Source of the DNA: Dickeya dadantii NCPPB 898
GTDB taxonomy: Bacteria > Pseudomonadota > Gammaproteobacteria > Enterobacterales > Enterobacteriaceae
Direction: 5' to 3'
NCBI RefSeq assembly: GCF_000406145.1
Contig: NZ_CM001976.1
Coordinates: 867,260-899,259, forward strand
DNA length: 32,000 nucleotides
Part shown: piece after piece, positions 4,364 through 22,386 of the stretch
Layout: every line of letters starts with the position of its first letter
Numbering within the stretch: position 1 is the stretch's first letter
Notes under the pieces: model-generated
The model's database searches: none
Seen by the model: the letters and a program-made list of their open reading frames with translations, nothing else
What the model was told of the DNA's origin: nothing
Translations under genes and position numbers: made by a program

Positions 4364-5604
4364 ATATGCAACCGGAATCACAGGCGGATAGCACGCCAGC
4401 ACCGTCAGAGAAGGTGGCCTCCGAGACACTGGTGCTGCGCAGCAGGCCACGCCCGGTGACCCGGCTGAACCGGCGCTCGCTGTTCATCCTGACCGGCGGT
4501 TTGGCGCTGGCGGTGCTGGCGGCGACGCTGTGGGCGTTACAGCGCCCCAGGCCGCATGATAACGGTGAACTGGCTGAACGCTATAACGTCGAGCGGGTGG
4601 CGAAAACCGAAGCACTGAACCGGTTGCCGGCGGATTACACCCGGTTGCCGACGAAACCTGCGGAGGTGACGCCTGTGTTGGGGCCGCCGCTGCCGGGGGA
4701 TATGGGGCCGCCCATGATCCGTGCCGCTAAGGCGGTCACACCATCCGGGCCAGATGCTTATGAGTCGGCGAGTCAGGCACGCCTGAAAGAAGCCGAAGAC
4801 GCCGCCGCCTCGCCGGTGTTCTTTCGTCGTGGCAGCCAGCCGGCACCACCACCGGCGTCCACCAGCCCATCTCCGGCCCCGATTGCGACTGACCCTATGG
4901 CCGAGCAGGGGGCGGTTTCCGGTATCCGGCAGGATCAGAAAGAGGCGTTCCTGCTCGGTGACATGACCGATACCCGAAATCACGGCGATCTGCGGCTACC
5001 GGCTTCGCCTTATCAGGTGATGGCGGGAACGGTGATTGCCGGGGCGCTGGTGACCGGTATTCGTTCCGACCTGCCGGGGCCGGTGATCGCCACCGTCACC
5101 GAACCGGTCTACGACAGCGCGACCGGACATTATCTGCTAATCCCGCAAGGCTCGCGCTTGCTGGGGAAATACAATAGCCAGGTCAGCTATGGGCAAAGCC
5201 GGGTTCAGGTGGTCTGGAACCGCATTATCCTGCCGGATACGTCATCGCTGACGCTGGATAATCTGGCCGGTGCCGACCCGGCCGGTTACGTCGGGCTGGA
5301 AGATCAGGTGGACTGGCATTGGGATCGTGTGATTGCCGGTGCAGCAATGACCACACTACTGGGGGTGGGAGCCGAACTCGCTGCCCCGGAGAACCGACAG
5401 CATGGCGATCGTATTATCCTTGCCGGACGTGACAGTTTGCAGGATTCGGTCAGTCAGGTGGGACAAGAGCTCACCCGGCGTAACCTCGATATTCAGCCGA
5501 CACTGACCGAACGGCCAGGTCTGCCGGTTCGTATCATCGTCAACAGGGATTTGGTGTTAAGGCCGTATCAACCACTGTTTTTTAATCAGGGGAGTGCACG
5601 TTGA
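4360..5604 (+). CDS. trbI: TrbI (VirB10-like) T4SS protein
   Basis: GTG 4360 or ATG 4366 overlaps the trbG stop. The protein has an N-terminal TM helix and a Pro-rich region. The conserved C-terminal domain reads YQVMAGTVIAGALVTGIRSDLPGPVIATVTEPVYDSATGHYLLIPQGSRLLGKY...VVWNRIILPD. Confidence 0.9.
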   Translation: MNMQPESQADSTPAPSEKVASETLVLRSRPRPVTRLNRRSLFILTGGLALAVLAATLWALQRPRPHDNGELAERYNVERVAKTEALNRLPADYTRLPTKPAEVTPVLGPPLPGDMGPPMIRAAKAVTPSGPDAYESASQARLKEAEDAAASPVFFRRGSQPAPPPASTSPSPAPIATDPMAEQGAVSGIRQDQKEAFLLGDMTDTRNHGDLRLPASPYQVMAGTVIAGALVTGIRSDLPGPVIATVTEPVYDSATGHYLLIPQGSRLLGKYNSQVSYGQSRVQVVWNRIILPDTSSLTLDNLAGADPAGYVGLEDQVDWHWDRVIAGAAMTTLLGVGAELAAPENRQHGDRIILAGRDSLQDSVSQVGQELTRRNLDIQPTLTERPGLPVRIIVNRDLVLRPYQPLFFNQGSAR

Positions 5605-5651: not shown

Positions 5652-6197
5652 TTATCTGGAACGGTAGCGTGCCGACACATCCCGGGCGGTATGCAATAGC
5701 CGTAAGATATGTACGTCGCCGCTGTGGCGTTTCAGCGCATAGACCAAAATAAACGGCAGCCGGGCCAGCACCAGTTTACGCCGTTCTCCCGATTTCCCTA
5801 TGCTGACGCCCGCTTCCGGGGTGGTTTCCAGCAACGCCACTGCGGCGGCGAATTTGTCATCGGTGGCATTGGCGACCTCCAGTCCCGCGTTCTGGTACAG
5901 GTAACGGTAAATGTCTTCGCGGTCAGCGATAGCTTGCCTTTCCCAGCGAACCGTTGCCGTCACAGTTCCCCCCGGGCGGCTTGCGCTTTCAGTCGCCGCC
6001 ATACGTTGACTGGCCTCATCATTGCTGATGAACTGGACCTCACCAGCATCGTAACGGGCGAAAGCCTCCTGAATTTTCGCTTCCAGCCATTCATCACCGG
6101 TATGGCGCTGGTACTGCCGCTCTTCCTCGGCCAGTTCTTCCGCACGCTGGCGCATCAGTTCGGTAAGACTGACCTGCTGACGCTCAGCAGCCTTCAT
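5652..6197 (-). CDS. ParE/RelE-family toxin-like domain fused in frame to an upstream ParD-like (stability-determinant type) antitoxin-like region
   Basis: This is one uninterrupted ORF (the track gives 5652-6299). The C-terminal half resembles ParE toxins (VRWERQAIADREDIYRYL...RKLVLARLPFILVYALKRHSGDVHILRLLHTARD). The N-terminal half resembles small helical antitoxins (WLEAKIQEAFARYDAGEVQFISNDEASQRM). No stop codon separates the two parts. The start is uncertain: ATG 6197, ATG 6290 or TTG 6299. An internal ATG at 6002 could initiate the toxin part alone. Confidence 0.6.
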   Translation of the reverse strand: MKAAERQQVSLTELMRQRAEELAEEERQYQRHTGDEWLEAKIQEAFARYDAGEVQFISNDEASQRMAATESASRPGGTVTATVRWERQAIADREDIYRYLYQNAGLEVANATDDKFAAAVALLETTPEAGVSIGKSGERRKLVLARLPFILVYALKRHSGDVHILRLLHTARDVSARYRSR

Positions 6198-6687
6198 AGC
6201 CAGTACGTTTGGTTTCCTCGTCAATTCTGAAGTGTATTGTCCCCATGACAGCCTCCAATAGATTGCATGTGTTGTCACTTGTGGTGTCATTTTATCCAAT
6301 CTCGTCAGTTTTTGCTGCTTTTTTGAAGGGGAGAATCGGCTTACCGTGTAACGCTGCTCTCAGGATACAGTGGCGGTTTTGTTGTAGAGGCTAGCATCTA
6401 ACATAATGTATATTAGCTCAGACCTGAACTGGCACTGTTTACTGCGCAGAACTAAACTTAATCTGACAGGCTGCTTTGTGCTAGGAGCGGGCATACAATA
6501 TCAGTCTAATTGGAATCGGAATTGCCGTTTTTAGCTACATCGACTTAGTGGACATCGAAACACGTATCAGTCAATTTCCCTAAAGCCAGCCCTTATACAT
6601 GGATGCATGGCATTAGCCTTTTCAGAGCTTGCGCTTTGGCAGTATCGCAGTTTCATAGGTTTTTAAAATAAGGGGTTAAGGGTACAG

Positions 6688-7956
6688 GTGTTGCTAATCA
6701 AATTCCTTCGAATAATGGCATACTTTCCCAACCATACGGCGAGTTTCCTTAAAACTTATAATAACTTTATGACGAATATTCCTGCTTTTAATGAGAAAGG
6801 GTATCTGCCAGAAGGCACCCACAGTTGTTCTGAGCAACAATTTATTGAGCGCTTCTGTACGATCAGCGAAGAACGCTCGGATCTAAAACAAGCATTTATC
6901 GATATTCTGGATTTCGCAAACACGCGCAATGCAATATGTGTTTACGTCGGCGGTTCTTATGTTACAAGGAAACAAAATCCAAACGATTTGGATGTCGTAA
7001 TCGTATTTCGGAACAAAGAGCACATCCCATCGAGATCTGAACGATGGATTATTGATGGAAAGCGTACAGATATTATGTTTTGCTCGGCTGACGATCCCGT
7101 CGTTACCGCGTCATTTATAAAACTGCTGTCTTTCGAGCGCTACGGCAGTAGCGTGGGTGTAATTCAAATCAATCTTGACCACACAGATGAACCGTGGACG
7201 ACTCATCATGAACCAGATGACAATACCTACGAAGTCATCAAAAGAACCTATTTCAACCGACATCTGGTCGACTTGAACAAGGCATCGGGGGTGCTGGTTA
7301 CTATCCACGGGATAATGACGCATGCGGAATGGAATGCGAATATTATCCCTATTGCGAGCAGTCAAGGGTGGATCGTCGCCCCTTACATTTACGGTTATAC
7401 CACTCCTGACATCCTTTTGAATAAAGGGAAACGAAAAGAAGCGGTGGACGCCTTTAGGGACTGGATTTATTCGATTAAGCAGGATTTTTGCCGGAACGGT
7501 GAAGCGATTTCAGTGATTGCACACTCCTTTGGAACCTATCTGATAGGTGCTTACCTTGATGGTTTCAATGAAGTTTCTCCGGTCCGTTTCAACACAATTA
7601 TTCTTACCGGCAGCATTCTGAATGAAGGCTATGATTGGGAAAGTTGTATCGGCTATAAAGTTGCGCGGGTCAGAAACGAAATAGCACCCAACGACCAGTG
7701 GGTAAGCTTGATGCAGAGGAATCCATCAGAATGGCTTGGCCTCGATCCACTCTTTGGCCAAGCAGGAGCAAAAGGCTTTACCTCTCAGAGTCGTATTCTT
7801 ACGCAGCACACCAATAAAATTTTCGATCACAATAATGTCATTAAAAAAGATGTCATAACATCAATGTGGATGCCGTTTCTGAACAGCAATAAGTACGCGT
7901 CAGATGAAGAATATTATAAGCGCTACATGGGGCATTCTAAAAATGGCGGCCAATAA
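6688..7956 (+). CDS. Fusion protein: N-terminal Pol-beta-superfamily nucleotidyltransferase (DUF6932/MNT-like) plus C-terminal alpha/beta-hydrolase (serine esterase/lipase-like)
   Basis: The N-terminal part reads FNEKGYLPEGTHSCSEQQFIERF ... VYVGGSYVTRKQNPNDLDVVIVF, which matches the hG[GS]-x9-13-Dh[DE]h NTase signature. The C-terminal part has an HG oxyanion-type motif (VLVTIHGIMTHAEW), a nucleophile elbow (VIAHSFGTYLIG) and later candidate Asp/His residues (APNDQW, FDHNNV). GTG 6688 is preceded by AAGGG; an alternative start is ATG 6769 (MTNIPAFNEKG). Confidence 0.7.
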   Translation: MLLIKFLRIMAYFPNHTASFLKTYNNFMTNIPAFNEKGYLPEGTHSCSEQQFIERFCTISEERSDLKQAFIDILDFANTRNAICVYVGGSYVTRKQNPNDLDVVIVFRNKEHIPSRSERWIIDGKRTDIMFCSADDPVVTASFIKLLSFERYGSSVGVIQINLDHTDEPWTTHHEPDDNTYEVIKRTYFNRHLVDLNKASGVLVTIHGIMTHAEWNANIIPIASSQGWIVAPYIYGYTTPDILLNKGKRKEAVDAFRDWIYSIKQDFCRNGEAISVIAHSFGTYLIGAYLDGFNEVSPVRFNTIILTGSILNEGYDWESCIGYKVARVRNEIAPNDQWVSLMQRNPSEWLGLDPLFGQAGAKGFTSQSRILTQHTNKIFDHNNVIKKDVITSMWMPFLNSNKYASDEEYYKRYMGHSKNGGQ

Positions 7957-8079: not shown

Positions 8080-8982
8080 ATGACTAATAATCAGTTTTAT
8101 GAACTTTATAGTCGGCTTGCTGCATTACAAACCAGTAACGCTGATTGTCATCCCATTATTGAGGAGCTGACCCGGCTGTGTCTCGAAACAATTAGGAACT
8201 CCTCCTTGCAAGAATGCCTAGCGGTCGCAGCTCTCTGCTTCCGTGAAATTGGTCAGTCAGAGCAGCTTTTCACAGTAGCCCTAGCCTGCTGGCTTACCGA
8301 GGATAAATGTATCGACCTGGCAAAAGTGCTTACGCATGAAGCGAGTGTAAGCCACTTACAGGCAAACAGCCCAGTTGCGTATGATCTTTCTTCCACAGAA
8401 GAATCACGCGCCAGACTGGCAGCGTGCCGGCTTTGTGCACTTCATGTTTCTCCGGCGATATCCCTCGGCTGGACCTTAAGTCTGGCAACCTCCTTCCCTG
8501 CAAGCGCAACTACACTCAACACGGCTCAGGCGCTCCTGCAGCATCATATGAAGGATTATCCGTCGACCACGCTACGACTTCTTTCCAGCCCGAACTCCTC
8601 GTTTTCTTCATTGTTACTGGCGCAAACCGTGCTCAAACGACTGGAACAACAACGAAGCCATCTGAACGCACTGCCGAAACTTCGCGAGCTTGTGATGCCA
8701 CCTGAAATGCGCCTGATATACGCCAGTCTGAAGCGCAGCGAGAACCGGGATATTCAAAGGCAGTCAGAAGAAAAATCGATTTTTGACCAGTTCATCACCA
8801 GGCAGCATTTCAAGTACGCCAGTAAGACAGCTATTGAGGTTCTTACCGGCGATGATGTCAGGGAAACCACCCTGGAGATGATGCCATTTCAGATCGCGAC
8901 AGAGCTACCTTCGACCTGGCTTACCGATCCGGTTTCCGGAGACCTTGCCATGAACAGACAGTGGGAAGGAGTGTTGGAATGA
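8080..8982 (+). CDS. Hypothetical protein, 300 aa, no recognisable domain (composition suggests helical); translationally coupled to the next gene
   Basis: The ORF is clean, with an ATG start. Its stop overlaps the start of the downstream gene (ATGA at 8979-8982). I recognised no family. Confidence 0.6.
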   Translation: MTNNQFYELYSRLAALQTSNADCHPIIEELTRLCLETIRNSSLQECLAVAALCFREIGQSEQLFTVALACWLTEDKCIDLAKVLTHEASVSHLQANSPVAYDLSSTEESRARLAACRLCALHVSPAISLGWTLSLATSFPASATTLNTAQALLQHHMKDYPSTTLRLLSSPNSSFSSLLLAQTVLKRLEQQRSHLNALPKLRELVMPPEMRLIYASLKRSENRDIQRQSEEKSIFDQFITRQHFKYASKTAIEVLTGDDVRETTLEMMPFQIATELPSTWLTDPVSGDLAMNRQWEGVLE

Positions 8983-10658
8983 GCATTCAACTGGTTCTTT
9001 CTCATTATCTGGCCGGTCTGCGCGAGCGCAACGAGCTCGATGCACTGCTGCCTGAATTACTTAAAGCCATGGGGCACTCCGTGCTCAGCCGCCCGCAGAT
9101 TGGCCCAGGGCAGGCAGGCGTTGATGTGTTATCGACCAGACCGGATGGGAACGGTGTCGATGAAGTGTACGCCTTCATCATTAAATTTGGCGATCTCGGA
9201 CGTGCAGACTTTTATGGCGGTCAGCAGTCCATCGATCCGTCCGTGCGAGAAGCATGCACCGACTTCCTCCGAAATCGCCTGCCGGAACACCTCAAGCCTT
9301 TGCGCAAAAAGATTATTCTAGTGTCGAATGGCGTGTTGTTACAGGAAGCTCAGGCTGGCTTTTCAGCCCTGACGGAAGACGTCGCTGAACGGCCGCTCTG
9401 TAGACTCGAATTCTGGGGTAGCGATCAGCTCACACCCTTGATAGAGCGGTTTCTGTTCGACGAAACATTGCTGTTGGCCCAAGGAAAATCCGATTTGCGT
9501 GCAGCCCTTGCGGGTCTTGAAGAGTCGGGAGCAGCAATAGGTCGTTTCGTTCGCTTTGTTGATGCCTGTTTTGAATGCCCTACCGAGGAAATGAAGCAGA
9601 GTAAAGCAACGCGCAAGAAAAAGTTTTTGAGACGCTGCGCTGCAGCCGCTATGGGCTGGGCGGTACTACTAGTCTGGGGCAAAAGCGAGGGGAATCTAAA
9701 ACCTGGCGTTGTTACTGGGGAGTATTTGCTACTGCGCATGTGGGCCGAGGCGGTAAAACTTCAGCTAGATGCTGACCGCGCGTTTATCAACCGATTTGAA
9801 ACCATGGTGGACATGCAGACGCAGGCTCTGGTGGACTACTTTGAGAAGGTGATGCCCACACTAGAGATACCGCGTGCGGTCCTCTCGTATCGTCCGGAAC
9901 GCATCTTCTATCTGGAGCTTATGTTTGAGGAACTGGGACGCTTGGCCACCCTTCTGTTACTACTCCAGCGAAAACCCGATCAGGAGGAGTTTCGGACACG
10001 GATCCTGACGGCCATCATTCACCTGGTGAACCAGCATCCGGGTGTACGGCTTCCTCTGTATGACGGACATACCATTGACCTCACCCTGATCTTCTGTGCA
10101 CTGATGGGGGAGTCGGACTGGAGCAACACCCAGATTCTTGCTGGTGAAGTTGTCGCCCGGCTCCTCTGTGCACTGAAAACAGATTGCTACCTGCCTGTCG
10201 ACACCGACTCTCTGGAAGATGCCATCGCGCTCGACAGAGGACATGCCGCCAGCCGGGATTTCTTCCAGACATCAACGCTTGTACCGGCACTGGCTACTGT
10301 GGCGTCAGTGCTCGATGACGAAGAAAATCTTGAAGCCTTGCGCAGTCACGTGCTGCCATTGATGAAAGGAGTCACGCTTGAGCGCTGGTATCCCACTTCG
10401 TTACTCGAAACGCTCAGCGGATCACTGCGGGGGGTTCAGAGTGTCGGTATATCCAGAGCGCTGTCCGGACTCAGGCCTTCAACAAGGGAAGAGGCTGAGG
10501 CGTCAATTAAAACATTTGACGGTATGGCGTCCCCCTCGGACTTCAGATGGTCAGGTCGCTGGCAGGTGCTGATCGCGCTGTCAGCACGCCTGCATCGACA
10601 TCCCTTACCCACCTGGTTTATTGCTGAGTACAGGCGACCGGAACATTTCACTGAGTAG
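8979..10658 (+). CDS. Hypothetical 559-aa protein with an N-terminal Mrr-like / PD-(D/E)xK restriction-endonuclease-like domain and a long unassigned C-terminal region
   Basis: The ATG at 8979 is preceded by GGGAAGGAG. The N-terminus reads LDALLPELLKAMGHSVLSRPQIGPGQAGVDVLS...EVYAFIIKFGD...KKIILVSNGVLLQEAQ...LEFWGSDQLTPLIERFL. This follows the Mrr_cat pattern (helix, G-x-D, x-x-K, core strand, trailing helix), although the usual E/Q-x-K reads I-I-K. Confidence 0.65.
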   Translation: MSIQLVLSHYLAGLRERNELDALLPELLKAMGHSVLSRPQIGPGQAGVDVLSTRPDGNGVDEVYAFIIKFGDLGRADFYGGQQSIDPSVREACTDFLRNRLPEHLKPLRKKIILVSNGVLLQEAQAGFSALTEDVAERPLCRLEFWGSDQLTPLIERFLFDETLLLAQGKSDLRAALAGLEESGAAIGRFVRFVDACFECPTEEMKQSKATRKKKFLRRCAAAAMGWAVLLVWGKSEGNLKPGVVTGEYLLLRMWAEAVKLQLDADRAFINRFETMVDMQTQALVDYFEKVMPTLEIPRAVLSYRPERIFYLELMFEELGRLATLLLLLQRKPDQEEFRTRILTAIIHLVNQHPGVRLPLYDGHTIDLTLIFCALMGESDWSNTQILAGEVVARLLCALKTDCYLPVDTDSLEDAIALDRGHAASRDFFQTSTLVPALATVASVLDDEENLEALRSHVLPLMKGVTLERWYPTSLLETLSGSLRGVQSVGISRALSGLRPSTREEAEASIKTFDGMASPSDFRWSGRWQVLIALSARLHRHPLPTWFIAEYRRPEHFTE

Positions 10659-10872: not shown

Positions 10873-10936
10873 TCATACCTTCATACCTTCATACCTTCAT
10901 ACCTTCATACCTTCATACCTTCATACCTTCATACCT
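10873..10936. repeat. Perfect tandem octanucleotide repeat, (TCATACCT) x 8
   Basis: Counted directly: eight contiguous identical 8-bp units from 10873 to 10936. The repeat lies in the 464-bp spacer between two convergent genes. Confidence 0.95.
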
Positions 10937-11122: not shown

Positions 11123-14100
11123 TTATTTACTACACTTAGCGAATCTGTCTTCTAAAGATTGGCGCAAAGTTTTAAGTTCCCTGACTGATTCAACAACCTG
11201 AGGTGTTGGGGAAGGTTTTCTTGCCTTCAAACACATAGGTCTTAGTTTATCTGGATTTTCACCAGCATAATTTTCATGTCGTAAAAAACTCATGATAAAA
11301 CTTGAAAAGGAACGAATTGAATGCGTATTACTAATCAAACCGTCATCATGGTGAAGCCAGAAAATCAGTTGCTCATAACTTTCGGCAGAGTAGAGAATTG
11401 ATAAATCAGAGATTTGCTTATTTTTTTCATCTCTCAACTTAAAAGCTGAATCTTTATTCATCACCCTAATTCGTTTGTAATTAGCCAAAAAATTAAAAAC
11501 AATATATAAGTAAAAAATCCCAATGACATTAACTAACCCTATCAAGAAGATGATATTTAAAGTCACCTCACCCAAGTCAAAAATATGTGCAGGGATAAAC
11601 TTTTTGACCAGCCAGCACAAGCTATACCCCAGCGCCAAGCAAATTGATAGAAAAACAGCCCCAAAAAAAATTAAAATAGTTGAAGCTTTCAAAAAAACCT
11701 TGATATTTAGATGTTTGATAATCCAGATCATAACATCATGAAATTTAATCTTCTTGCCTTGATGGCGAACCAAAAAAGGAGAAAACATAATAATAACTAG
11801 CAATATCAAAAGTGAAAATAAAATAAAAGATATTACTGTTAAGTTTGTTGGTTTGTTTACTAAATTTACTGTAATTATAATCCAAGAGGCCAGCAGAATC
11901 GCGAAAGAAAACGTGAAATCTATTTCAATTTTTGAGCTTTGGTAATTATTTTTAATGTGCCTTAACGAGTGTCGTGGTAGCATATCCATTGCAACAAGCA
12001 TTGAGTTTGCTACAGTGGTAATAATAGAAAAGGGGTTAATTAATAAGAACCGTGGTAGAGATTTTTTGAAAAATTCAAGGTTGTTTCTCAAACGCTTACC
12101 TCGCGAGACAACAATATTTGCCCCCATATCTGAAGGTAACCTCGCCGCCAAAGCTTCAATAGTTAGTAATTCCTCTCTATTTTTAGCGAGTATAACTTGG
12201 TCTGAGAGCATTCTCAAAACAACCGCTCTTGCCTCGTCTGGAAGCTTAGAAGCAAATGCCGCTTGCCTGAAAGCATTTTGCCGCTCAGATTTTGTACCAT
12301 GATTGAACGTCTCTACAAGACAGGCAACTAAAGTATCCTGTGGCAAAAGCCCACCTAAACGAAGTACCTCGCATCGATCCCATGAATCGCCTTTTTCCCA
12401 ACGAGGCATTAGAAACTTAGACGCAGCCAGAGAGAGGTATTCAGGTACGTCATGAATGCGATGAGCTAGTCCTTCCTGTAGCAAACTAAGAAGAGGAATT
12501 GCCTTTTCAGAGGTCCAGTCAAAATAGATCAAATCTTCTGGAAGAGGGGGAGTCCCACAGTGAGTATATTTATTTACCGTACAACTTTCTTCCAGTATGA
12601 CACTGGCTTGCACTAAGATGCTGTTTATTGCTTCAAAACTACAGGTTTGCAAAAGCGTAACAGTGTATTCACGCCAACGGTCCTGTGTAAGAAGCTCTGT
12701 CGCTGAGAGAATATTCGGGTGGCCTGTAAGGTAGCGGACAAATAGAGCTTCCTGATAACGACGGTGAGCAAAAGCAAAACGACGGTCGCCCGGAGCTGCA
12801 TTAGGAACATCGGCCCTTCCAATTTTAGAATCAACTAGTGCAGAAATGAGATTCTCAAGAGATTTCCCAGGAAGCTCTTCATTTTTTAATTTCACCCGTA
12901 TCTGGTCGAGAGAAGGTGCCAGACTCAATGTATCATCTTCTGCAAATAGCCTGGCTAAGCGCTCGGCCCCGATGATCAGTTCTTCAGGATTTAACGTATA
13001 CTTACGAAACAAATAATCTGGTTCACGTTTTGCCAGCCTTTCAATATGCTGCAGCAATATGTCATGATCGTTACTAGGAGCATGTTGCTCATCCCTGACG
13101 TATCGGCACAGTAGTGTTAAGAATAGTGGTGTTGAACCTATACTGCTATGAGAGCCAGCAAGGTGTTGACGAACCAAATTCATATGTTCTTCTTTAAGGA
13201 AAGAATTACGTATCAGTTCATCTTGCTTATCCCCACTCAGTGGTAGAATCCTCAGTTTTTTCCAGGGGAGAGCTTCAGGGCCTTTAAATTCCCGTGATGC
13301 TAATATCCCTTTGCATTCTCCCATGCCCTCCAAGAACTGCCTGAGTGCTTGAGAGTAACTTCTTATTATGTTGTCTCCACTTACCGAATGGAGAACGGCG
13401 GGAATTTCATCAAATGAATCAAATAGGAATAGCCATAATCCTCTGTTACAGTAGTCGTCCCAGTTTTCTTTAACAAATGCTGAAGTATCAGCATCTCCTC
13501 GACGAATATTATCGAGTATGAATTCACGCACGGTATCCACGTTTACTGCATCAGCATTACTGAATTCCATCTCACGAAGGTTGATATAAAGCGGGACTGT
13601 TGCATTTTTATCATTTGATTTTTTACCTTGCTCAGCTAACTGCTTTGCAAGATGCCGTAATGCCACACTTTTCCCTGACCCAGGTTCACCGACCAGTTGC
13701 ATCGCACGCTCAGTACTGGATGTGATGGCTCGAACAAGCGAGCGTTCCTTACGTAATCCAAAAGATTTTTTTCTGCGCAACTTGTCTATGGCAGAAGCAT
13801 AATACCCTCCCTCAGATTCCACCTCAGCTTCAAGGTCAGTAAAATATTGATCATTCCAGTTTTCTGCTTTAGCCAAATAAGCAAGGTCTGCTTCAAGTAC
13901 TGCACAAAATTGCTTTCTTCTTCTAACTCTTTTTTCATTGTCTTTGCTTAACCAAACAGGAAGGCCACTGGTTTTGTATATCTCAATGAATTTTATGAGA
14001 AGCTCAATTACTTCCCCAAACGATTTTAATAAAAATATTACTATACATCCCCCTATTGTAATAATAAATAAAGCCAAAATCAACCAGTGCCATATATCTT

Positions 14101-14194
14101 GAGATGTATTATTAGACCATAATGAATTAAATATTCTTTCAATGATTTCCAATCCTTTTTCTGAAATGCTAACTGATTCATCTTCTTTTGCCAC
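11123..14194 (-). CDS. Membrane-embedded NACHT/STAND NTPase (1023 aa): N-terminal TM helix, NACHT module, helical repeat region, four C-terminal TM helices and a ~120-aa tail
   Basis: Motifs present: Walker A LVGEPGSGKSVALRHLA, VPLYINLREM, Walker B LWLFLFDSFDEIP, GILASREF...LRILPLSGDKQDELIRNSF, and winged-helix-like RRFAFAHRRYQEALFVRYL. Hydrophobic helices are WHWLILALFIITIGGCIVIFLL (aa ~35-57) and four more at aa ~755-904 (FAILLASWIIITVNLV, VISFILFSLLILLVIIMFSPFLV, ASTILIFFGAVFLSICLALGYSLCWLV, VTLNIIFLIGLVNVIGIFYLYIVFNFL). Confidence 0.85.
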   Translation of the reverse strand: MAKEDESVSISEKGLEIIERIFNSLWSNNTSQDIWHWLILALFIITIGGCIVIFLLKSFGEVIELLIKFIEIYKTSGLPVWLSKDNEKRVRRRKQFCAVLEADLAYLAKAENWNDQYFTDLEAEVESEGGYYASAIDKLRRKKSFGLRKERSLVRAITSSTERAMQLVGEPGSGKSVALRHLAKQLAEQGKKSNDKNATVPLYINLREMEFSNADAVNVDTVREFILDNIRRGDADTSAFVKENWDDYCNRGLWLFLFDSFDEIPAVLHSVSGDNIIRSYSQALRQFLEGMGECKGILASREFKGPEALPWKKLRILPLSGDKQDELIRNSFLKEEHMNLVRQHLAGSHSSIGSTPLFLTLLCRYVRDEQHAPSNDHDILLQHIERLAKREPDYLFRKYTLNPEELIIGAERLARLFAEDDTLSLAPSLDQIRVKLKNEELPGKSLENLISALVDSKIGRADVPNAAPGDRRFAFAHRRYQEALFVRYLTGHPNILSATELLTQDRWREYTVTLLQTCSFEAINSILVQASVILEESCTVNKYTHCGTPPLPEDLIYFDWTSEKAIPLLSLLQEGLAHRIHDVPEYLSLAASKFLMPRWEKGDSWDRCEVLRLGGLLPQDTLVACLVETFNHGTKSERQNAFRQAAFASKLPDEARAVVLRMLSDQVILAKNREELLTIEALAARLPSDMGANIVVSRGKRLRNNLEFFKKSLPRFLLINPFSIITTVANSMLVAMDMLPRHSLRHIKNNYQSSKIEIDFTFSFAILLASWIIITVNLVNKPTNLTVISFILFSLLILLVIIMFSPFLVRHQGKKIKFHDVMIWIIKHLNIKVFLKASTILIFFGAVFLSICLALGYSLCWLVKKFIPAHIFDLGEVTLNIIFLIGLVNVIGIFYLYIVFNFLANYKRIRVMNKDSAFKLRDEKNKQISDLSILYSAESYEQLIFWLHHDDGLISNTHSIRSFSSFIMSFLRHENYAGENPDKLRPMCLKARKPSPTPQVVESVRELKTLRQSLEDRFAKCSK

Positions 14195-14587
14195 AACAAC
14201 TCCTTGCTAATAATTTGTTATCTTTGAGGCGAAGGCATTTTCTGACATCTAAAGTGTTAGCTCATTATTTGCAACACCCAAGTATTTAAGTCAATAGTAA
14301 AATTTATCTTATTTATATATGAAAATTAAAAGAATTTTCAAACAAACTGCCCGCTATCCATTGATTGAAAAACCGATATTAATAATGTCTTCATTAGTAC
14401 CTAACAGTTATTTTGGATTAGAATGTTAAAATGTCCGCTTCACGCTCTGAGGCGCTCGACAAGGTTTTTATTCTTTCAGCAAAGACTCGCCTCAACGAGT
14501 TTTTGTATTTCTTTATCGTTGGGTAGATCAAGGCTGCTTAGTGAGCCGATGGTATTGGTGCTGCAGATATAGAGGGAGTACATCTAT

Positions 14588-14887
14588 TCAATCAGATGTT
14601 ATTGTTGGCCAACCTTGTACTATTTTTCCACCGTGAGCACATCCATCGCCCATTCTTACAACTGGCTTGCCTTCAATAGTAAAGAGAGATGACCCCGAAA
14701 CCAGTCCATCCTGCATGCCTACACCAGTACACAACGCTTTTCCCCCGACAACGGCAACAGGGGTTCCATTGATAGTAACAACTGACTGTCCTGCATCAAT
14801 AATTGGGCCACCTACATGCGGTACTGGGCCGGGTTCGACTTTTGGACAGACATGCATGTGACCGAGTATTGCGACGGGTTTTCCCAT
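14588..14887 (-). CDS. PAAR-domain T6SS spike-tip protein (stand-alone, 99 aa)
   Basis: The sequence shows PAAR-like repeats (VVTINGTPVAVVGGKALC, FTIEGKPVVRMGDGCAHGG) and an HMHVC metal-ligand-like motif. It is the last gene of the hcp-vgrG operon. Confidence 0.85.
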   Translation of the reverse strand: MGKPVAILGHMHVCPKVEPGPVPHVGGPIIDAGQSVVTINGTPVAVVGGKALCTGVGMQDGLVSGSSLFTIEGKPVVRMGDGCAHGGKIVQGWPTITSD

Positions 14888-14898
14888 GGATATTTCTC

Positions 14899-15663
14899 CT
14901 ATAGTAGATAAGGCCTTCTGCGCTTTTCTGCCAACGCATCCGCCTGACTAAGATTCACTCTTATGCGGCCATTAAAATCCCCGCCATTCAGCCAGGAAAA
15001 CAGGCAGGCATCAGTACGCTGAATAAACGGATTAAGTTCGATCAACATTGTGTCGTATTGTCCGTTCTGATGGGTAATTGCGATATCTGCAACAACACTA
15101 TCCATATGTAGTAACGGTATCAATTTTTGCAGAAACTGAATGATTTGTTGGCGTATTTCATCGGCATGTTCGGTTAAGAAAGGAAAATATTCCAGACAAT
15201 GATATTGGGATACACCGACGACGTTACCATCCTTTATAAAGCACCTGAATTCGCTCCATCGTGGAATATCATGCCATCCCCGCAAAAATAGCCAGGCTGG
15301 TGTTGATGATTGCAGACAATCCCAAAGATAGGATGCCACTCGATGACTGGAAACAGACAATTGCCTGATCACGTCATCCACGCTGTTGGCCCGCGGAATG
15401 GTTGCTTCATGATAACTGACACCACCAAATCTCACGAAAACCGGCGTAGTAAATTTCGACAATATATACTCGATATCATCGCGTAATTGTTCAGAAAATA
15501 GTGGCTTTTCCAGTAATCGTTTCGCATCCATGAACTCGCTAGTACAAGCACCGATCGCTATAACGTCCCGTTCATGAAGCTCAATGCCTTCGCTCTGGAA
15601 AGAAAGCGTCAAAAGCGTTTCCGGCCAGTTTTCGATAAAAGTCTGTTTGTGCTCAGTGTACAT
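14899..15663 (-). CDS. Cdc123/D123-family (R2K clade) ATP-grasp protein
   Basis: It aligns by eye to eukaryotic CDC123. [14 protein letters not shown] matches [45 protein letters not shown] matches [50 protein letters not shown] matches WLIDFNPFGEVTDSLLFTW. Confidence 0.8.
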   Translation of the reverse strand: [254 protein letters not shown]

Positions 15664-15711
15664 ACCAACTCAGCCTTGACGTTATAATGTTATTGCGCCT
15701 GCGTACCAAAA

Positions 15712-16236
15712 TTACAACTTATCTTCTGACGTTGGTGTGTATAGAAATTCTTTTAGCGATAGAGCTAACAATCCTAACCCATCACCAACCGATAGATTGT
15801 CGATGTAATATCGCCAGTGAAATACACTTTTATATGTTGGGGAGTTGGGTCTTACGTCGTATATAATATATGCATCACCATCATCGTCATAGTCTGAACC
15901 AATTGCGATAAGACCAGTCGGTAATAGTGATCTGTTTTCGTATATTGATTCTTTTAAAAGATTAGTCGAGCTGATTACCTGTTCTGTGGGGAATAAGATA
16001 GCCATTAATGCTTTTCTCACTCTTCCATCATACCGCACTAAAAAATGATCTATATCTTCTAGCGGACCGCAAGCTTGATCGGCAACCAGATGAATATAAT
16101 CTTTATATTCATCTGGCAAGTGAACCTGAAGTTTTTCTTCGATATCCCCGATTCTTTTGTTGATCGTTACAGATTCAATAACTAAATCAGGATCATCCGT
16201 TTCCCACTTAACCAAATCTTCTTTCTGTATTTCCAT
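15712..16236 (-). CDS. SMI1/KNR4 (SUKH-superfamily) immunity protein
   Basis: The ATG at 16236 lies 1 nt after the toxin stop (TAG 16238-16240). It carries the SUKH-type motif IEEKLQVHLPDEYKDYIHLV. It sits immediately 3' of the nuclease effector. Confidence 0.7.
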   Translation of the reverse strand: MEIQKEDLVKWETDDPDLVIESVTINKRIGDIEEKLQVHLPDEYKDYIHLVADQACGPLEDIDHFLVRYDGRVRKALMAILFPTEQVISSTNLLKESIYENRSLLPTGLIAIGSDYDDDGDAYIIYDVRPNSPTYKSVFHWRYYIDNLSVGDGLGLLALSLKEFLYTPTSEDKL

Positions 16237-16237
16237 A

Positions 16238-17203
16238 CTAAAAATCCTCGCTGCGCCACATTGAGTCACCGCCTACATGTGGTGTTCCACTATTTACACT
16301 ACCTGTTTCACTATTTTTATATGCAGTGTGTATATCTTTGTCGACTAAGCTCATTGTAACGCCATCCGGTTCATGGTGCCATGTGCCAAGCCGCTCTTGG
16401 TCTTTAGGTAGTTTTTTGCCGTATTTTTCTGAAAAGGCATTTCTTGCTGAGCTGAAATCGCTTCCATTACCTTTCATATCAATTTCTACTTGATAGGGCT
16501 TGCCCCCATCACCGATGGGTTTGCCATCTTTTAATGGTGGGAAACCTGAAAAATCGGGGTGTCCGTCTTTGAAAGGAACACCTTCTTTGCCATGGCGTGT
16601 AACCACTTCATAGAGACTTTTATTCTTCTCTGGATCAGGCTTGTACATACCCGTACCGGGTGGGCAGGGTTTACCATCAGGTCCCACCCAACTCCCTTTT
16701 TCGGAGGAGGGGAGGCGTCCTGGATCCATTGATTTATCTTTCTCAAATTTTTCTTTGGCCAGTTTTTTACATTCTTCTGTTTTACATTTCCCCAGCTCTT
16801 TATCCAGTTTTTCCTGCTTTCTTTTTGCTATTAGCTCTTTCCAGTATTTCTTGGCGTTTTCCCGTGTTGTCGCAAATACTTTTGTATTCAGGGCTGCTTT
16901 GGCTTTCGACAGCGCAGCGGTGACTTTTTCCACTTTTGCCGCGATTTTTCCAGCTTTAGCCCCATCACCCAGTATCGGGATAAACCCTAAAGCATCAAGG
17001 GCGGCTCCGCCCCAGTCACCTTTAAATAATGAACGTCCTAACGATACGACGTCCGCCGCCGTACCAAACGGCGGTGGCGCAGCCCCTGCCGCTGCCAGAC
17101 CGCTATCCACGATCAGGTCGTTATATTGTGACTCCATATCCATCACTTTTTTGCGATCGGCTTCGATCTCCGGGCTTTCGCTTCGCGATCTGATATTCGC
17201 CAT
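16238..17203 (-). CDS. T6SS polymorphic-toxin effector: Gly/Ala-rich pre-toxin N-region plus C-terminal WHH-type HNH/EndoVII nuclease
   Basis: The C-terminus reads GTWHHEPDGVTMSLVDKDIHTAYKNSETGSVNSGTPHVGGDSMW, i.e. W-H-H ... H ... H-x-GG. The N-terminal region reads DVVSLGRSLFKGDWGGAALDALGFIPILGDGAKAGK. The gene lies downstream of vgrG and DUF4123 and upstream of the SUKH gene. Confidence 0.75.
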   Translation of the reverse strand: MANIRSRSESPEIEADRKKVMDMESQYNDLIVDSGLAAAGAAPPPFGTAADVVSLGRSLFKGDWGGAALDALGFIPILGDGAKAGKIAAKVEKVTAALSKAKAALNTKVFATTRENAKKYWKELIAKRKQEKLDKELGKCKTEECKKLAKEKFEKDKSMDPGRLPSSEKGSWVGPDGKPCPPGTGMYKPDPEKNKSLYEVVTRHGKEGVPFKDGHPDFSGFPPLKDGKPIGDGGKPYQVEIDMKGNGSDFSSARNAFSEKYGKKLPKDQERLGTWHHEPDGVTMSLVDKDIHTAYKNSETGSVNSGTPHVGGDSMWRSEDF

Positions 17204-17231
17204 GGCTTTCTCCTTTGATGGTCTAACCGGT

Positions 17232-17618
17232 TCACTCCGGAAACCAGTAATTCGGGTGACTCTTCATAACGGCATCTGCACCTTGATCTTCGCTGACGTC
17301 GGTGAAGAGTGCCTCCAGCCGCTCATCTTCACTCCGCTCTGTATCCGTAAGGATTTGCTTAAAGCCATCAAATTCAAAGAAGTTCGATCCGATACCCCAC
17401 ATGAAATACAGGAATTTCGCCTGGTTAGTCGGCTTGTGGATATTGAGTTTTTTAGCGATTTCCCTGCCATTCAGCGTCATCGTATACAGCGTTTCCGGCG
17501 TATGCCCTTGCTTGTGTTCCGGCAGCGATGCTTCCATCACCTCGTCGACAAACCATCGGGAGAAGTCTTTATCGCTCATCAAATGCGATTCCATTTGCAG
17601 GTCGTCAAAGTGCCACAT
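17232..17618 (-). CDS. Hypothetical 128-aa protein between the DUF4123 adaptor and the effector (possible co-chaperone or accessory)
   Basis: The ATG at 17618 is preceded by AGGAG at about 10 nt. It overlaps the 3' end of the DUF4123 gene by 14 nt. I recognised no family. Confidence 0.5.
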   Translation of the reverse strand: MWHFDDLQMESHLMSDKDFSRWFVDEVMEASLPEHKQGHTPETLYTMTLNGREIAKKLNIHKPTNQAKFLYFMWGIGSNFFEFDGFKQILTDTERSEDERLEALFTDVSEDQGADAVMKSHPNYWFPE

Positions 17619-18216
17619 GCGTTGGGCTCTCCTTATGTGATGGTGTGATAGGCAAGACCAGTTGCGCCACATGCAATTTATTCGTGTCATGGGTGTAATA
17701 CATCAATCGCTCTGGCTCATCCGTGGTTTCCGCATATACCGCATAAAGCGGGGCAAAGAATGCCGCCAACTGTTCCTGCGTCAGGCGTGGAATAAACTGG
17801 TTAAACGTCTTCGGCTGATAGAAACGGAAAAAGTAGGTTTTTCCACCATTAGTCACTTTGGTGAATTTTTTGAAATGCCTGACCAGTGGTATCAGTGACA
17901 AGGAACTGCGCACGATGATTCCCCACTGCCGCATATAGCCGTCTGCCAGCCACCAGTCCAGCACATCGCTGTGCGCATCAACCTGCACTAGGTAAGGTGC
18001 GACATGGCCGAGATTATCCAGAACGGACACATCGAATAACGAGCGGTAGATCGGTGCAAAACCCTCCAGGCAGACAGCAATGTCTGGACTGGCTGCTGCA
18101 TTCAGTAACAGAAAGGTGTGTAACGTTTTTTCCTGGTCATCTTCATGGATCATTGCAGGCGTGAATACCGTTGTTTTCAGGCTATCACTCACCGCGTCAT
18201 ACGGATTTTCCAGCAT
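17605..18216 (-). CDS. DUF4123 T6SS effector adaptor/chaperone (Tap/Tec family)
   Basis: Motifs: FLLLNAAASP...APIYRSLF...GHVAPYLVQV...WGIIVRSSLSLIPLVRHFKKF...YFFRFYQPKTF. The ATG at 18216 has GGGAG 6 nt upstream and lies 15 nt after the vgrG stop. The track ORF begins at 18252. Confidence 0.8.
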   Translation of the reverse strand: MLENPYDAVSDSLKTTVFTPAMIHEDDQEKTLHTFLLLNAAASPDIAVCLEGFAPIYRSLFDVSVLDNLGHVAPYLVQVDAHSDVLDWWLADGYMRQWGIIVRSSLSLIPLVRHFKKFTKVTNGGKTYFFRFYQPKTFNQFIPRLTQEQLAAFFAPLYAVYAETTDEPERLMYYTHDTNKLHVAQLVLPITPSHKESPTHVAL

Positions 18217-18230
18217 GGTTAGCTCCCTGC

Positions 18231-20540
18231 TTATTTCTTTTTGTACGGGCATTCTTCCGAGAATGGTTTATCACTGCTCAGTGCTGCTGCCTGTTCTGCC
18301 GCGCCACCGGACATATCAATTGATGAGGCTTTCATCTTGATTGTCTTCGCCTTGATGGTGATACCGCTGTCATCAATAGTGATCGAGCCCCCTGGACCAC
18401 CGATGACGACTTTCTCTTTGGCATACAGCGTATGTTTCAATGTGCGGGAGAAAATAGAGCCTTTGGTTTCGATGTCATATTTATCGCCAACCAACAGTTT
18501 CAATACCTGACCGACGGACAGTGTCTGGGTGTGGCCCACCAGCGTATTTTTATAAAGCCCGACCTGTTCGGTACTGGCAATTCCTGTTGTATCCGAACGA
18601 AACTTTTCGACTACCGTATTAAAAATACCAGAGCCCGGCATCAGGCTGGAAAGTAGCCCGGCCAGCGATGTGCCTTTCGATACCATATCCACGCCAGCGT
18701 TGGACCTGAAGCCGCCTGCATCAGTAAATGATTTTCCTGCTGTTAATGACAGGGTTTCTGCGGCTGCACCGACTTTATTGATGTCATCCGCAAACTGTTC
18801 CACACCCGGCTCACCAACCTTGGCCGATTCTTTCTTCATAAACTTGCCGCTATTGGATATCAGGCTGAACAATCCCCCTAACAGTCCGAGCCCTTGTCCT
18901 CCTACCGTCAGATTCATATTACCGCCAACACGGTGCTGGTGATGCTTACCGATTTCTGTACTTCGGTTTTCTCCAATGCTTTCCACTGCGCTGGAATCCA
19001 CCCGTGTCGTCATGTCGTGCAATATCTTCACTGACATATCCTTCTGGGCATGAATATGAATATTCTCCTGTCCTGACTCATCCTCAAAAGAGAGCTCGTT
19101 GTATCCGCTCCCACGGTGGGAGTCTGAACGAATAACCGTTTTGGTTTTATGTTCCGGCAGGGTATACGGAGACGGGTTGGTGGCGTGAAAGGTGCGCCCG
19201 GTGACGATGGGCTGGTCCGGGTCCCCTTCCAGAAAGCTCACCACCACTTCATGACCGATGCGCGGAATGGCAATCAGGCCGTACTGACCACCGGCCCAGC
19301 CCTGACTGACCCGCACCCAGCAGGAGCTCTGGTCGTCGCTGGCACCGTAGCGGTCCCACGGGAATTGCAGTTTCACCCGGCCAAACTCGTCGCAGTAAAT
19401 CTCTTCGCCCGCCGGGCCGACCACGGTGGCAATCTGCGGGCCGTCCACCATCGGCTTGTACGGCATGGCCGCCCGCCAGGTGGTGGTGGCTTTCACCACC
19501 TCGAAACTGTTGCTGATGGTGGTCGGCTCGCCACCGCTTTCCTCTTCCAGCGCCTGCGGCTGCTGCCCGCTGTGGGTCACCGCCACCACCTGCCAGGCCA
19601 GGTTGAATGCCGGGTTCGGGTGCTCGGTGAGGGTAAAGGTGCCACCCGGCATCAGTTCGGCGGCGTTGGATTCACCCGCCCCGGTCATCGCCCCGGCACG
19701 CAGCGCGTCCAGCCGGTAGCCGGTAAACGCCTTGCCGCTCGGGTCCTGCTTGAAGCGGCCGGGGTAATCAAAGTGCTGGTAGGATTCACGCTGATGGTCC
19801 AGCTCGCTGCTCATCCTGTTGTGCAGCAGCCCGTAGGCAGGGGTCTTGAAGCTGTAATCCTTCAGCGCCACCTCAGCGGTACTCACCGCCTCGGCATAAC
19901 GGAAACGGCGCACATACGCCCCTTCGCTCAGCCCCTGCGTGGCGAGATTGAAGAACAGCTCCGGGCCTTTGGTCAGCGCACCGGCGTCATCGGCAAACAC
20001 CACCCGGTGCTTGCCGGCTTCGAATTCGTGGAAGTAGAACAGCCCTTCTTCTGCGGCCAGCCGGTTGATGAACGCCAGGTCGCTTTCGCGGTACTGCACG
20101 CAGTACTCGCGCACCGCGTGGTCGTGGCGCAGGGCAAAGGCAAAATCGCTGATACCGGCTTCCTGCAACAGTTCGGTGATGATCTCATCCGGTTTTTTGG
20201 TCTGGAAGATACGGGCGTTGGTGCGCAGACCGAGCCGCCACAGCGCCGGGCGTACCTCGGCCTGGTAGCGGGTGCGGCGAAAACCGGTGTCGCCCTGGGC
20301 AAAGCGGCTGACGATACCGCTGACCCGGCGCTGCAGTTCGCCTTCGTACCACACCAGCAGCTCGCATGGCTGGTCCAGCACCGCGCCGAAGTCGATATCC
20401 GCCTGACTGCTGGCAAGGCTCAGCGACAGCGCAAACGGCTGGTTCAGCGCCTCGCTCAGCTCAAAATCCACCACCGCGAAGGTGGTGTCCGCCAATGCGC
20501 CGATTTTCACGGTAAACTGCAATCCTGTACTGTTGGCCAC
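18231..20540 (-). CDS. vgrG: VgrG T6SS spike protein with an AT-rich variable C-terminal region
   Basis: The sequence shows the canonical N-terminus ([36 protein letters not shown]), the gp5 OB-fold ([21 protein letters not shown]) and beta-helix repeats. GTG 20540 is preceded by AAGGAGG; the track start is ATG 20567. Confidence 0.95.
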
Positions 20541-20659
20541 CCTGCTTCCTCCTTTCCCCGGCTCCATAGCTACCGCACACCCGGTCTGTGCCGTGTGTCA
20601 GTGCACTATCACAATGAATGCGCCTGCACTCAGAGATGGGCACACCATCGCTCAGCGCA

Positions 20660-20695
20660 GACAAAAACAGAAAAACCCGGACCGGAGTCCGGGTT
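20660..20695 (-). terminator. Rho-independent terminator or attenuator between hcp and vgrG
   Basis: The minus strand reads AACCCGGAC-TCCG-GTCCGGGTT followed by TTTTCTGTTTTTG. It begins 9 nt after the hcp stop. Confidence 0.7.
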
Positions 20696-20703
20696 GATGG
20701 CAA

Positions 20704-21222
20704 TTACGCTTCGATCGGCGCGCGCCAGTCGTCAGAGCCGGAAGTCCCGGCCACGGTGTGTTCCCAGTCGATTTTGCGGTACGCCAGCGACACTTCGATC
20801 AGCTGGGTGTAATCCTGCTTGGACGGGTCCTGGCAGTGCGGCATCTGGTTGTTGATGTCGACAATGGTGGCGTCGGTCAGTTTGGTGGTGAAGAAATGCT
20901 CCTGCTTGCCTTCGACGGAGGTGCGGTACCACTTCAGGGTCACGGTCGGCAGCATTTCGCCGGAGGCCAGCGCGTTATACAGCAGCGGGACGGCCTTGTT
21001 CAGCGCGACGGTGAACTTGAACGGTTTGTGCACGCGCTGACCGGCAGGCTGGCCGGACTGCGGGTCGGTCGGGACGGTGACGATGTGTTTGAATTCCTGC
21101 ACCAGCATCTCGTCTTCGTGGCCCTGCACGTAGATGTTGCCGACGGAGTCGGAGGTGAAGGCACCGGCGGTGATGTTGCCCTGCGTTTTACCTTCGATGC
21201 TGATATAGCATGGGGTTGGCAT
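20704..21222 (-). CDS. hcp: Hcp T6SS tube protein
   Basis: The 172-aa product is Hcp1-like (MPTPCYISIEGKTQGNITAGAF...VHKPFKFTVALNKAVPLLYNALASGEMLPTVTLKWYRT...). GGAG lies 7 nt upstream of the ATG. Confidence 0.95.
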   Translation of the reverse strand: MPTPCYISIEGKTQGNITAGAFTSDSVGNIYVQGHEDEMLVQEFKHIVTVPTDPQSGQPAGQRVHKPFKFTVALNKAVPLLYNALASGEMLPTVTLKWYRTSVEGKQEHFFTTKLTDATIVDINNQMPHCQDPSKQDYTQLIEVSLAYRKIDWEHTVAGTSGSDDWRAPIEA

Positions 21223-22005: not shown

Positions 22006-22386
22006 TGGTGGAGCTGGCGGGAGTTGAACCCGCGTCCGAAATTCCTACACCGTCGGTACTACATGCTTAGTCTGGTCTTTACATTCGCTTGCCAGCTGCG
22101 GACAGACACGCCACTAACAAACTAGCCTGATTGGATTTAACGCTTCAACCCCAGGCAGGGCATCCACGCGATCTCTTTTAGGTTTGACCTCTCTTGATCC
22201 CCGTCCTAAGAGCGGAGGCTAGGGAGAGAGGACACCTTCAGTTTCTTAGGCTGATTAAGCTGCTAAAGCAGCAGGTGCGAAGTTTTCGTCGTTTGCGACT
22301 ATTTTTTTGCGGCTTTTTACGAGGCCAACCGCCCCTCGGCATGCACCTTGGGTTTCGCGAATCCCGTCGAATCCAGAATCAGCCCC
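22006..22386 (-). ncRNA. ssrA: tmRNA (SsrA)
   Basis: The minus strand starts GGGGCTGATTCTGGATTCGACGGGATTCGCGAAACC and ends GGACGCGGGTTCAACTCCCGCCAGCTCCACCA. The tag reading frame is GCAAACGACGAAAACTTCGCACCTGCTGCTTTAGCAGCTTAA, giving ANDENFAPAALAA*. It lies directly downstream of smpB. Confidence 0.95.

Follow-up and report, generated by a model that had tools for sequence, protein, structure and literature searches.

The 32,000-nucleotide stretch of Dickeya dadantii NCPPB 898 analysed here (NCBI RefSeq assembly GCF_000406145.1, contig NZ_CM001976.1, positions 867,260 to 899,259; hereafter the window) carries on its minus strand, at 11123..14194, a gene for a 1023-residue NACHT protein with predicted transmembrane (TM) helices on both sides of its nucleoside triphosphatase (NTPase) module. 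Judged from its sequence, this protein is an orthologue of bNACHT13, a catalogued clade 8 member of the bacterial NACHT proteins, and not a new class; the gene lies in an island linked to the transfer-messenger RNA (tmRNA) gene, beside an Olokun-like system and an effector cluster of a type VI secretion system (T6SS). Our preferred reading, to which we assign a probability of about 0.4, is that the protein would work as a single-protein, membrane-integral conflict system resembling the NLRs (nucleotide-binding, leucine-rich-repeat proteins), in which NTP-driven oligomerization makes the helices perturb the membrane and thereby arrests the cell. The conflict would most likely be anti-phage.

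The reading frame begins with GTG, has its stop at 11123-11125 and is preceded, 5 nt ahead of the GTG, by an AGGAG box that can be read directly at 14200-14204 of the minus strand; the bNACHT13 orthologue has a GTG/Val start at the matching position. A 100% identical protein is present in the database under the name 'NACHT domain-containing protein [Dickeya dadantii]'. As reported in the initial annotation of this stretch, the gene is AT-rich: its GC content is 0.39 versus 0.526 for the window, which points to horizontal acquisition, and the part that codes for the TM region and the tail (0.32) is the window minimum. A scan for sigma-70 promoters and terminators around the gene returned no more sites than shuffled sequence. 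The parts of the gene and protein are as follows.

11123..14194, minus strand: complete gene for the NACHT protein, predicted to be membrane-embedded (open reading frame, Pfam match, identical database protein)
14200..14204, minus strand: ribosome-binding site AGGAG (sequence reading)
14090..14194, minus strand: N-terminal tail, residues 1-35, acidic, variable and predicted to be periplasmic (charge -3.2 over 34 orthologues)
14027..14089, minus strand: TM helix 1 (TM1), residues 36-56 (Kyte-Doolittle 3.08; within an AlphaFold2 helix spanning 34-75)
13715..14026, minus strand: highly conserved pre-NACHT region, residues 57-160, carrying the near-invariant AENWNDQYFTDLEAEVE..GGYY (alignment)
13190..13714, minus strand: NACHT nucleotide-binding domain, residues 161-335 (PF05729, invariant catalytic residues, Foldseek)
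13667-13690, minus strand: Walker A, within the NACHT domain
within 13406-13432, minus strand: Walker B, DSFDE
within 13289-13306, minus strand: sensor-1 arginine
12695..13189, minus strand: helical and winged-helix part of the NACHT module, residues 336-500 (FAHRRYQE, Foldseek alignment length)
12728-12775, minus strand: conserved FAHRRYQE histidine motif
12095..12694, minus strand: conserved all-helical domain, residues 501-700, predicted to be cytoplasmic, a candidate sensor or regulatory domain
11924..12094, minus strand: variable linker, residues 701-757; its helix at 716-735 is weakly hydrophobic and probably interfacial
11486..11923, minus strand: predicted four-helix membrane module, with TM2 at about 758-779, TM3 at 784-806, TM4 at 834-862 and TM5 at 876-903
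11126..11485, minus strand: predicted cytoplasmic helical tail, residues 904-1023, at the position of NCH3 in clade 8 relatives

The initial annotation had called the protein a NACHT NTPase of the STAND type (signal transduction ATPases that have numerous domains) with a full motif set, and all four motifs are found as described: GEPGSGKS at residues 169-176, LFLFDSFDE at 255-263, ILASRE at 297-302 and AFAHRRYQEALFVRYL at 474-489. The Pfam NACHT model PF05729 matches residues 165-332 with 38.7 bits (cut-off 26.7), and all remaining P-loop models of Pfam score under their own thresholds. The first motif follows the Walker A pattern GxxxxGK[ST], and the second contains D259-S-F-D-E263, an instance of the D[GAS]hDE Walker B signature given for NACHT proteins by Kibby et al. 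(bioRxiv 10.1101/2022.07.19.500537). Past the NTPase core, the chain continues into a helical and winged-helix extension that includes FAHRRYQE with an invariant H477. In an alignment of 84 sequences no variation is seen in the lysine of Walker A, the D-S-F-D-E of Walker B, the arginine of sensor 1 or the histidine motif of the winged helix; the invariant positions are G169, G172, G174, K175, S176, D259, S260, F261, D262, E263, R301, H477, R478 and R479, and the winged-helix part as a whole has F475, H477, R478, R479, Y480, Q481 and E482 fixed.

The same alignment yielded an AlphaFold2 model with a mean predicted local distance difference test score (pLDDT) of 81.8 and a predicted template modelling score of 0.72. 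When the model was compared with the Protein Data Bank (PDB) using Foldseek, the best matches were the animal NLRs NOD2 (E 8e-9), NLRP3, NLRC4 and NAIP5, with E values from 8e-9 to 1e-6 and alignments of 555-797 columns, well over the approximately 170 residues of a nucleotide-binding domain; against viral structures it gave generic AAA+ matches alone. Residues ~520-700, for which no Pfam match was obtained across the helical domain (501-700), are modelled with a pLDDT of about 90 or higher in most 10-residue blocks (range 83-95), and W599, G602, D606 and P687 are invariant there. The linker that follows (701-757) has a pLDDT of about 65 and an entropy of 3.19. A separate model of the C-terminal module reached a pLDDT of 76 and found no analogue in the PDB with Foldseek (best E 2.5).

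The pre-NACHT region (mean major-residue frequency 0.71) is invariant at F96, D103, L104, E111, W113, N114, D115, F118, L121, E122 and E126. Within it, AENWNDQYFTDLEAEVE (residues 108-122, window 13829-13873 of the minus strand) is near-invariant throughout the family, down to members with an overall identity of 37%, and, despite this conservation, is modelled with a pLDDT below 50 (residues 114-121 in the AlphaFold2 model). The segment may be ordered solely in the active or oligomeric state.

Hydropathy profiles (Kyte-Doolittle, 19-residue windows) agree with the one N-terminal and four C-terminal hydrophobic helices, followed by a soluble tail of ~120 residues, that had been noted at the outset. 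A peak of 3.08 lies at residues 36-56 and four more, of 2.08, 3.10, 2.45 and 2.62, fall within 756-905; a weak fifth C-terminal peak (1.63) covers 716-734, and the scan detected no hydrophobic segment between residues 57 and 715. AlphaFold2 renders the hydrophobic segments as long helices, the five main ones have the hydrophobicity and length needed to cross a membrane, and the one-plus-four pattern recurs in nearly all of the best 120 homologues, with peaks at about residues 38, 755, 785, 835 and 880. Complete reading frames of more distant members (~65 loci from other phyla) again show one hydrophobic segment near the N-terminus and four to seven towards the C-terminus. Loop charges, averaged over 34 orthologues, are -3.2 for the 35-residue N-terminal tail, +3.0 after TM1, +3.6 for the loop between TM3 and TM4, and +4.6 for the tail after TM5. 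The predicted outer loops are short (4 residues between TM2 and TM3; 13 residues, neutral, between TM4 and TM5). Since the NTPase must be cytoplasmic, the N-terminal tail is placed outside, and from these sequence features we infer a five-helix topology in which the N-terminus would face outwards, the NACHT module and the C-terminal tail inwards, with about 50 residues exposed to the periplasm and residues 501-700 in the cytoplasm.

Conservation is distributed unevenly along the chain. Among orthologues, identity amounts to 77-93% over residues 57-500 (pre-NACHT region and NACHT module), 53-90% over the helical domain (501-700) and 17-40% over TM1, TM2-5 and the tail. Hydrophobicity is retained in the membrane module, and across this module and the tail R810, G813, G856 and G886 are fixed; R810 and G813 belong to a PF[LIM]VRxxGxK motif on the predicted cytoplasmic side of TM3. 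The tail itself has two conserved motifs, SDxxILYSA..QLxxWL..IRxFSSF and LRQxLEDR. An exhaustive phmmer search of 1.84 billion representative proteins with the C-terminal 323 residues found no relatives outside the family: it gave seven matches, of which one is a full-length family member (P0049) and the other six, proteins of 105-353 residues, are taken to be family fragments. With seven matches only, the idea of a membrane module common to other systems was dropped.

The family can be assigned with the help of an existing catalogue. bNACHT13 (WP_087776413.1, Klebsiella quasipneumoniae TUM14048, 1021 aa) is listed in Table S2 of Kibby et al. (bioRxiv 10.1101/2022.07.19.500537), and its first 399 residues, which are printed there, are 76% identical to the window protein. 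The cluster representative P0027 is 99.5% identical to those 399 residues and 61% identical to the window protein over its full length, at 100% coverage. bNACHT13 and the window protein are alike in length (1021 versus 1023 aa), in their NACHT motifs and in having one TM helix at the N-terminus and four towards the C-terminus; they differ in host and locus, and their membrane modules and tails are only ~27% and ~40% identical. Table S1 of the same paper (bioRxiv 10.1101/2022.07.19.500537) assigns bNACHT13 to NACHT clade 8, so that the window protein is assigned to clade 8 through its orthology to an entry of that table. Kibby et al. (bioRxiv 10.1101/2022.07.19.500537) further name "TM regions" as one of five C-terminal classes of bacterial NACHT proteins, annotate other clade 8 members as NACHT+NCH3 or NACHT+DUF2070+NCH3 and place NCH3 at residues 930-1011 of a 1011-residue clade 8 protein of P. 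putida. The tail of the window protein aligns by its conserved motifs with orthologues that include 1011-residue P. putida proteins, and its position matches NCH3, which makes it a candidate NCH3 domain. The initial annotation had not recognised the architecture among characterised classes, and had named membership of a known family as grounds for refutation; given that the protein belongs to an already catalogued bNACHT family, the claim of novelty largely fails by that measure. What stands of its overall interpretation is a stand-alone NACHT protein with TM helices at both ends in a defence context, and what does not is the new architecture.

bNACHT13 was cloned for a phage screen in E. coli that covered T2-T7, lambda-vir, M13, MS2 and Q-beta, and its "Phage Defense" cell in Table S2 is blank (bioRxiv 10.1101/2022.07.19.500537). 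Some constructs of that screen were unscored owing to poor growth, and the blank cell may stand for a lack of defence or for insufficient growth (bioRxiv 10.1101/2022.07.19.500537). bNACHT13 was not found in the main texts of the literature searched, nor in a 2026 survey of Avs proteins, which defines Avs6-24, and its supplements. As no defence phenotype is recorded for it, the comparison transfers no function to the window protein.

The family itself is large and widespread. Scoring in the protein database gave over 1,100 homologues, the best 120 of them nearly all 1000-1050 aa long, and a scan restricted to one genome per species gave 79 loci at 30-55% identity from Proteobacteria, Myxococcota, Acidobacteria, Cyanobacteria, Chloroflexi and Actinobacteria. 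In Archangium gephyra SDU49 three paralogues of the membrane NACHT protein are present, each at its own chromosomal site (L012, L013 and L014), an observation in line with Kaur et al., who describe an expansion of these systems among multicellular bacteria. Searches with tblastn found no match to the protein in 50,697 phage records and, in 72,556 plasmids, two weak matches at the level of the NACHT domain and none at the level of the family; sequenced phages and plasmids therefore do not carry the gene. Nor did a blastn search turn up a copy in 5,426 complete E. coli genomes.

Bacterial NACHT/STAND proteins act, as the initial annotation pointed out, as single-gene systems, and the loci agree with this. 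Across about 70 loci, no neighbour family recurs at over 6, which are themselves related by synteny, so a conserved operon partner was rejected and the gene would work alone. In the window, its surroundings are the following.

4360-5604: VirB10/TrbI, of the type IV secretion system (T4SS) and conjugation genes, GC 0.63
5652-6299, minus strand: 215-aa reading frame with a ParE toxin domain confined to its C-terminal half (residues 117-207)
6688-7956, plus strand: DUF6932 reading frame, matching the PADLOC candidate PDC-M63A
8080-8982, plus strand: OloA-like reading frame, matching the C-terminal half of the OloA model only (E 6e-16)
8961-10658, plus strand: OloB reading frame (E 1e-83)
14588-14887, minus strand: PAAR protein
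14899-15663, minus strand: D123/ATP-grasp R2K protein
15712-16269, minus strand: SUKH/SMI1 immunity protein
16238-17203, minus strand: WHH-nuclease toxin
17605-18252, minus strand: DUF4123 adaptor
18231-20567, minus strand: VgrG
20704-21222, minus strand: Hcp
22006-22386, minus strand: tmRNA gene, with tag peptide ANDENFAPAALAA
22437-22919: smpB, adjoining the tmRNA gene; recN is also next to the latter

The Olokun-like pair (8080-10658) directly adjoins the NACHT gene and is convergent with it; its OloA may be split or a short variant. The intergenic region that separates OloB from the 3' end of the NACHT gene holds, at 10873-10936, eight perfect tandem copies of the octamer TCATACCT. The ParE reading frame either has its true start further downstream or is a fusion. 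On the other side, the auxiliary Hcp-VgrG cluster of a T6SS (14588-21222), which also has a 152-aa reading frame, occupies the same strand as the NACHT gene and is directly upstream of it; its ATP-grasp gene is unusually placed, lying between the immunity gene and PAAR. The NACHT gene is part of a stretch of low GC that lies left of the tmRNA gene and smpB, and the whole run, from the T4SS genes through ParE, Olokun and NACHT to the T6SS cluster, looks like a composite island or an integrative and conjugative element at the classical ssrA integration site.

Close orthologues have these contexts.

Klebsiella: P2-like prophage remnant, next to a PARIS-like pair of AAA_15/21 and DUF4435
Enterobacter hormaechei: flanked by a CBASS operon and by PAAR...VgrG (with two FGE-sulfatase genes)
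Morganella: adjoins TssF, Hcp and IcmF
P. fluorescens: adjoins a Tle1-like effector and four DUF2931 immunity genes
P. putida: integrase, then the NACHT gene, then SMODS + S_4TM and an AAA_15/21 pair, with PAAR nearby
P. tussilaginis: integrase island with a KAP NTPase
a further close orthologue: integrase island with DUF927 and DUF3077
Erwinia pyri and E. roggenkampii: no informative neighbours

These neighbourhoods (Olokun, PARIS-like, CBASS, KAP and integrase contexts) fit the defence or conflict role that had been proposed. T6SS genes occur within ~8 kb of the close orthologues in Dickeya, Enterobacter hormaechei, Morganella, P. fluorescens and P. putida (PAAR only in the last; loci L088, L089/L092, L090 and L094 and the window), an adjacency that could stem from common hot spots or from a link in function. 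For 13 distant loci, with 122 neighbours in all, PADLOC identified a retron RT-Toprim (RT, reverse transcriptase), two MADS, a type II methyltransferase and PifA.

Under the preferred reading, the protein would rest in an ADP-bound, autoinhibited form in the membrane. A cue of infection would be perceived by the helical domain (residues 501-700), by the tail or inside the bilayer, and would lead to nucleotide exchange and oligomerization of the NACHT module. This step would gather the N-terminal helix, which holds the usual effector position of bacterial NACHT and Avs proteins, together with the four-helix bundles of several protomers, and the resulting assembly would leak ions or otherwise disturb the membrane, so that the infected cell is arrested. 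We regard this as the best explanation because it accommodates an intact NACHT switch, five conserved helices, the failure to find an enzymatic domain or a partner, and a location in defence islands. Precedents exist, as other STAND defence proteins have been reported with pore-forming membrane effectors. CBASS has TM effectors. Type III CRISPR is likewise reported to have TM effectors. The plant ZAR1-type resistosome and Tmn follow a comparable logic. Several observations nevertheless weigh against such a mechanism. bNACHT13, the sole tested orthologue, has no recorded defence against T2-T7, lambda-vir, M13, MS2 or Q-beta, and the enrichment of defence genes near the distant loci is modest (~5 of 122 neighbours). 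The TM helices are the least conserved part of the protein (17-40% identity versus 77-93% for the NACHT core), with R810, G813, G856 and G886 alone fixed, which is little for a defined channel, and in the view of both Kibby et al. (bioRxiv 10.1101/2022.07.19.500537) and Kaur et al., the TM regions of NACHT proteins are sensors rather than effectors.

This last interpretation is the main rival, and we consider it possible, if rather doubtful, that the membrane module is a sensor of events in or at the membrane (phage genome injection, holins, superinfection-exclusion proteins, or changes in lipids or potential), after which the NACHT module would oligomerize and, by way of the helical domain or the candidate NCH3 tail, send a signal to host factors encoded elsewhere. 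The C-terminus is the canonical sensor position, and the fast-evolving part of conflict STANDs is usually the sensor; here, the N-terminal tail, the TM helices and the C-terminal tail diverge several-fold faster than the NACHT core. Lipid-facing helices, however, also diverge fast for trivial reasons, and the segments predicted to be exposed to the periplasm, of 35, 4 and 13 residues, are too short for a ligand-binding domain. A sensor of this kind would, moreover, leave the protein with no effector recognisable by Pfam, PADLOC or NCBIfam and no conserved partner gene. The recurrent T6SS neighbours raise a different prospect, namely that the protein serves in interbacterial conflict, either as a membrane guard against T6SS attack and membrane-targeting effectors or as an accessory of T6SS effector and immunity islands. 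T6SS genes lie within ~8 kb in 4-5 of about 11 independent close-orthologue contexts, when random placement would give, by a rough estimate, ~3% per locus. We nonetheless judge this improbable: orientation and junctions vary (tandem in the window, convergent in Enterobacter), none of the ~85 remaining fetched loci, all distant ones included, has such neighbours, the Klebsiella and other Pseudomonas copies reside in prophage or integrase islands, and the family is present in Actinobacteria, Cyanobacteria and Chloroflexi, phyla that generally lack T6SS. The co-location may also be passive, vgrG islands and defence islands both being hot spots of acquisition.

A related idea, that the protein is an NLR-like guard of envelope integrity answering T6SS spikes, membrane-targeting effectors and perhaps phage injection, would explain both the T6SS adjacency in Dickeya, Enterobacter, Morganella and Pseudomonas and the lack of recorded defence against coliphages, and if true it would make the protein the first NLR-type sensor for attack by other bacteria; we give it a very slim chance. 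There is, finally, a small chance that the protein stands outside conflict altogether, as a housekeeping or regulatory membrane-anchored NTPase with a part, for example, in the assembly of membrane complexes. The missing defence record of bNACHT13, some contexts without defence genes, and a NACHT core and helical domain that are unusually conserved for a defence protein would suit such a role. Its patchy, strain-specific distribution (0 of 5,426 complete E. coli genomes), its low GC, its residence in integrase, prophage and tmRNA islands, the three Archangium paralogues and the absence of a conserved partner gene argue otherwise. Membrane-integral NLR-like proteins are widespread (over 1,100 scored homologues, and loci from at least six phyla), and if the helices are the sensor, they would show an NLR reading events inside the bilayer.

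Comparison with known systems sets the protein apart from Tmn, Avs and the functionally validated bNACHTs in PADLOC and NCBIfam searches, in keeping with the initial annotation, which did not recognise it among the characterised bNACHT or Avs classes. Validated bNACHTs (bNACHT01, 09, 11, 12, 25 and others) and Avs proteins resemble it in their STAND/NACHT core, single-gene organisation and location in islands. They carry, however, a soluble effector at the N-terminus (nuclease, TIR or SIR2) or a SNaCT C-terminus that is short, along with sensors built of repeats or helices, whereas the window protein has five predicted TM helices and no enzymatic effector domain that Pfam, PADLOC or NCBIfam could detect. 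PADLOC 2.0 gave it weak matches at the P-loop level alone; with no Avs model among them and no effector domain, membership of the Avs families modelled there was rejected. EruA was likewise set aside, its model (NCBIfam NF058535) scoring 26 bits against an equivalog cut-off of 1000 in a local match to residues 314-460. KAP NTPases and PifA, the latter known to cause membrane depolarization and leakage, are also membrane-associated P-loop NTPases tied to defence. They belong to another NTPase clade, and neither Pfam PF07693 (at E <= 1) nor the PADLOC PifA model matched.

The best functional analogy is Tmn, one large polypeptide that joins a P-loop NTPase to TM helices. It assembles into a decamer, uses cytosolic arms to sense a phage protein, and exerts its action at the membrane. 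Tmn belongs to the YobI family and has two TM helices within its P-loop domain, whereas those of the window protein flank an uninterrupted NACHT module; Tmn/YobI was rejected as an assignment on the absence of such internal helices and of any Pfam or PADLOC match. In plants, resistosomes of the ZAR1/NRC type offer a further parallel, in that a STAND NTPase oligomerizes and its N-terminal helices join as a membrane channel. These are soluble AP-ATPase/NB-ARC proteins that insert after activation, whereas the window protein is predicted to be permanently integral to the membrane. If its helices are a nucleotide-gated membrane effector, it would be a bacterial counterpart of resistosome-type channels in the form of a permanent membrane protein.

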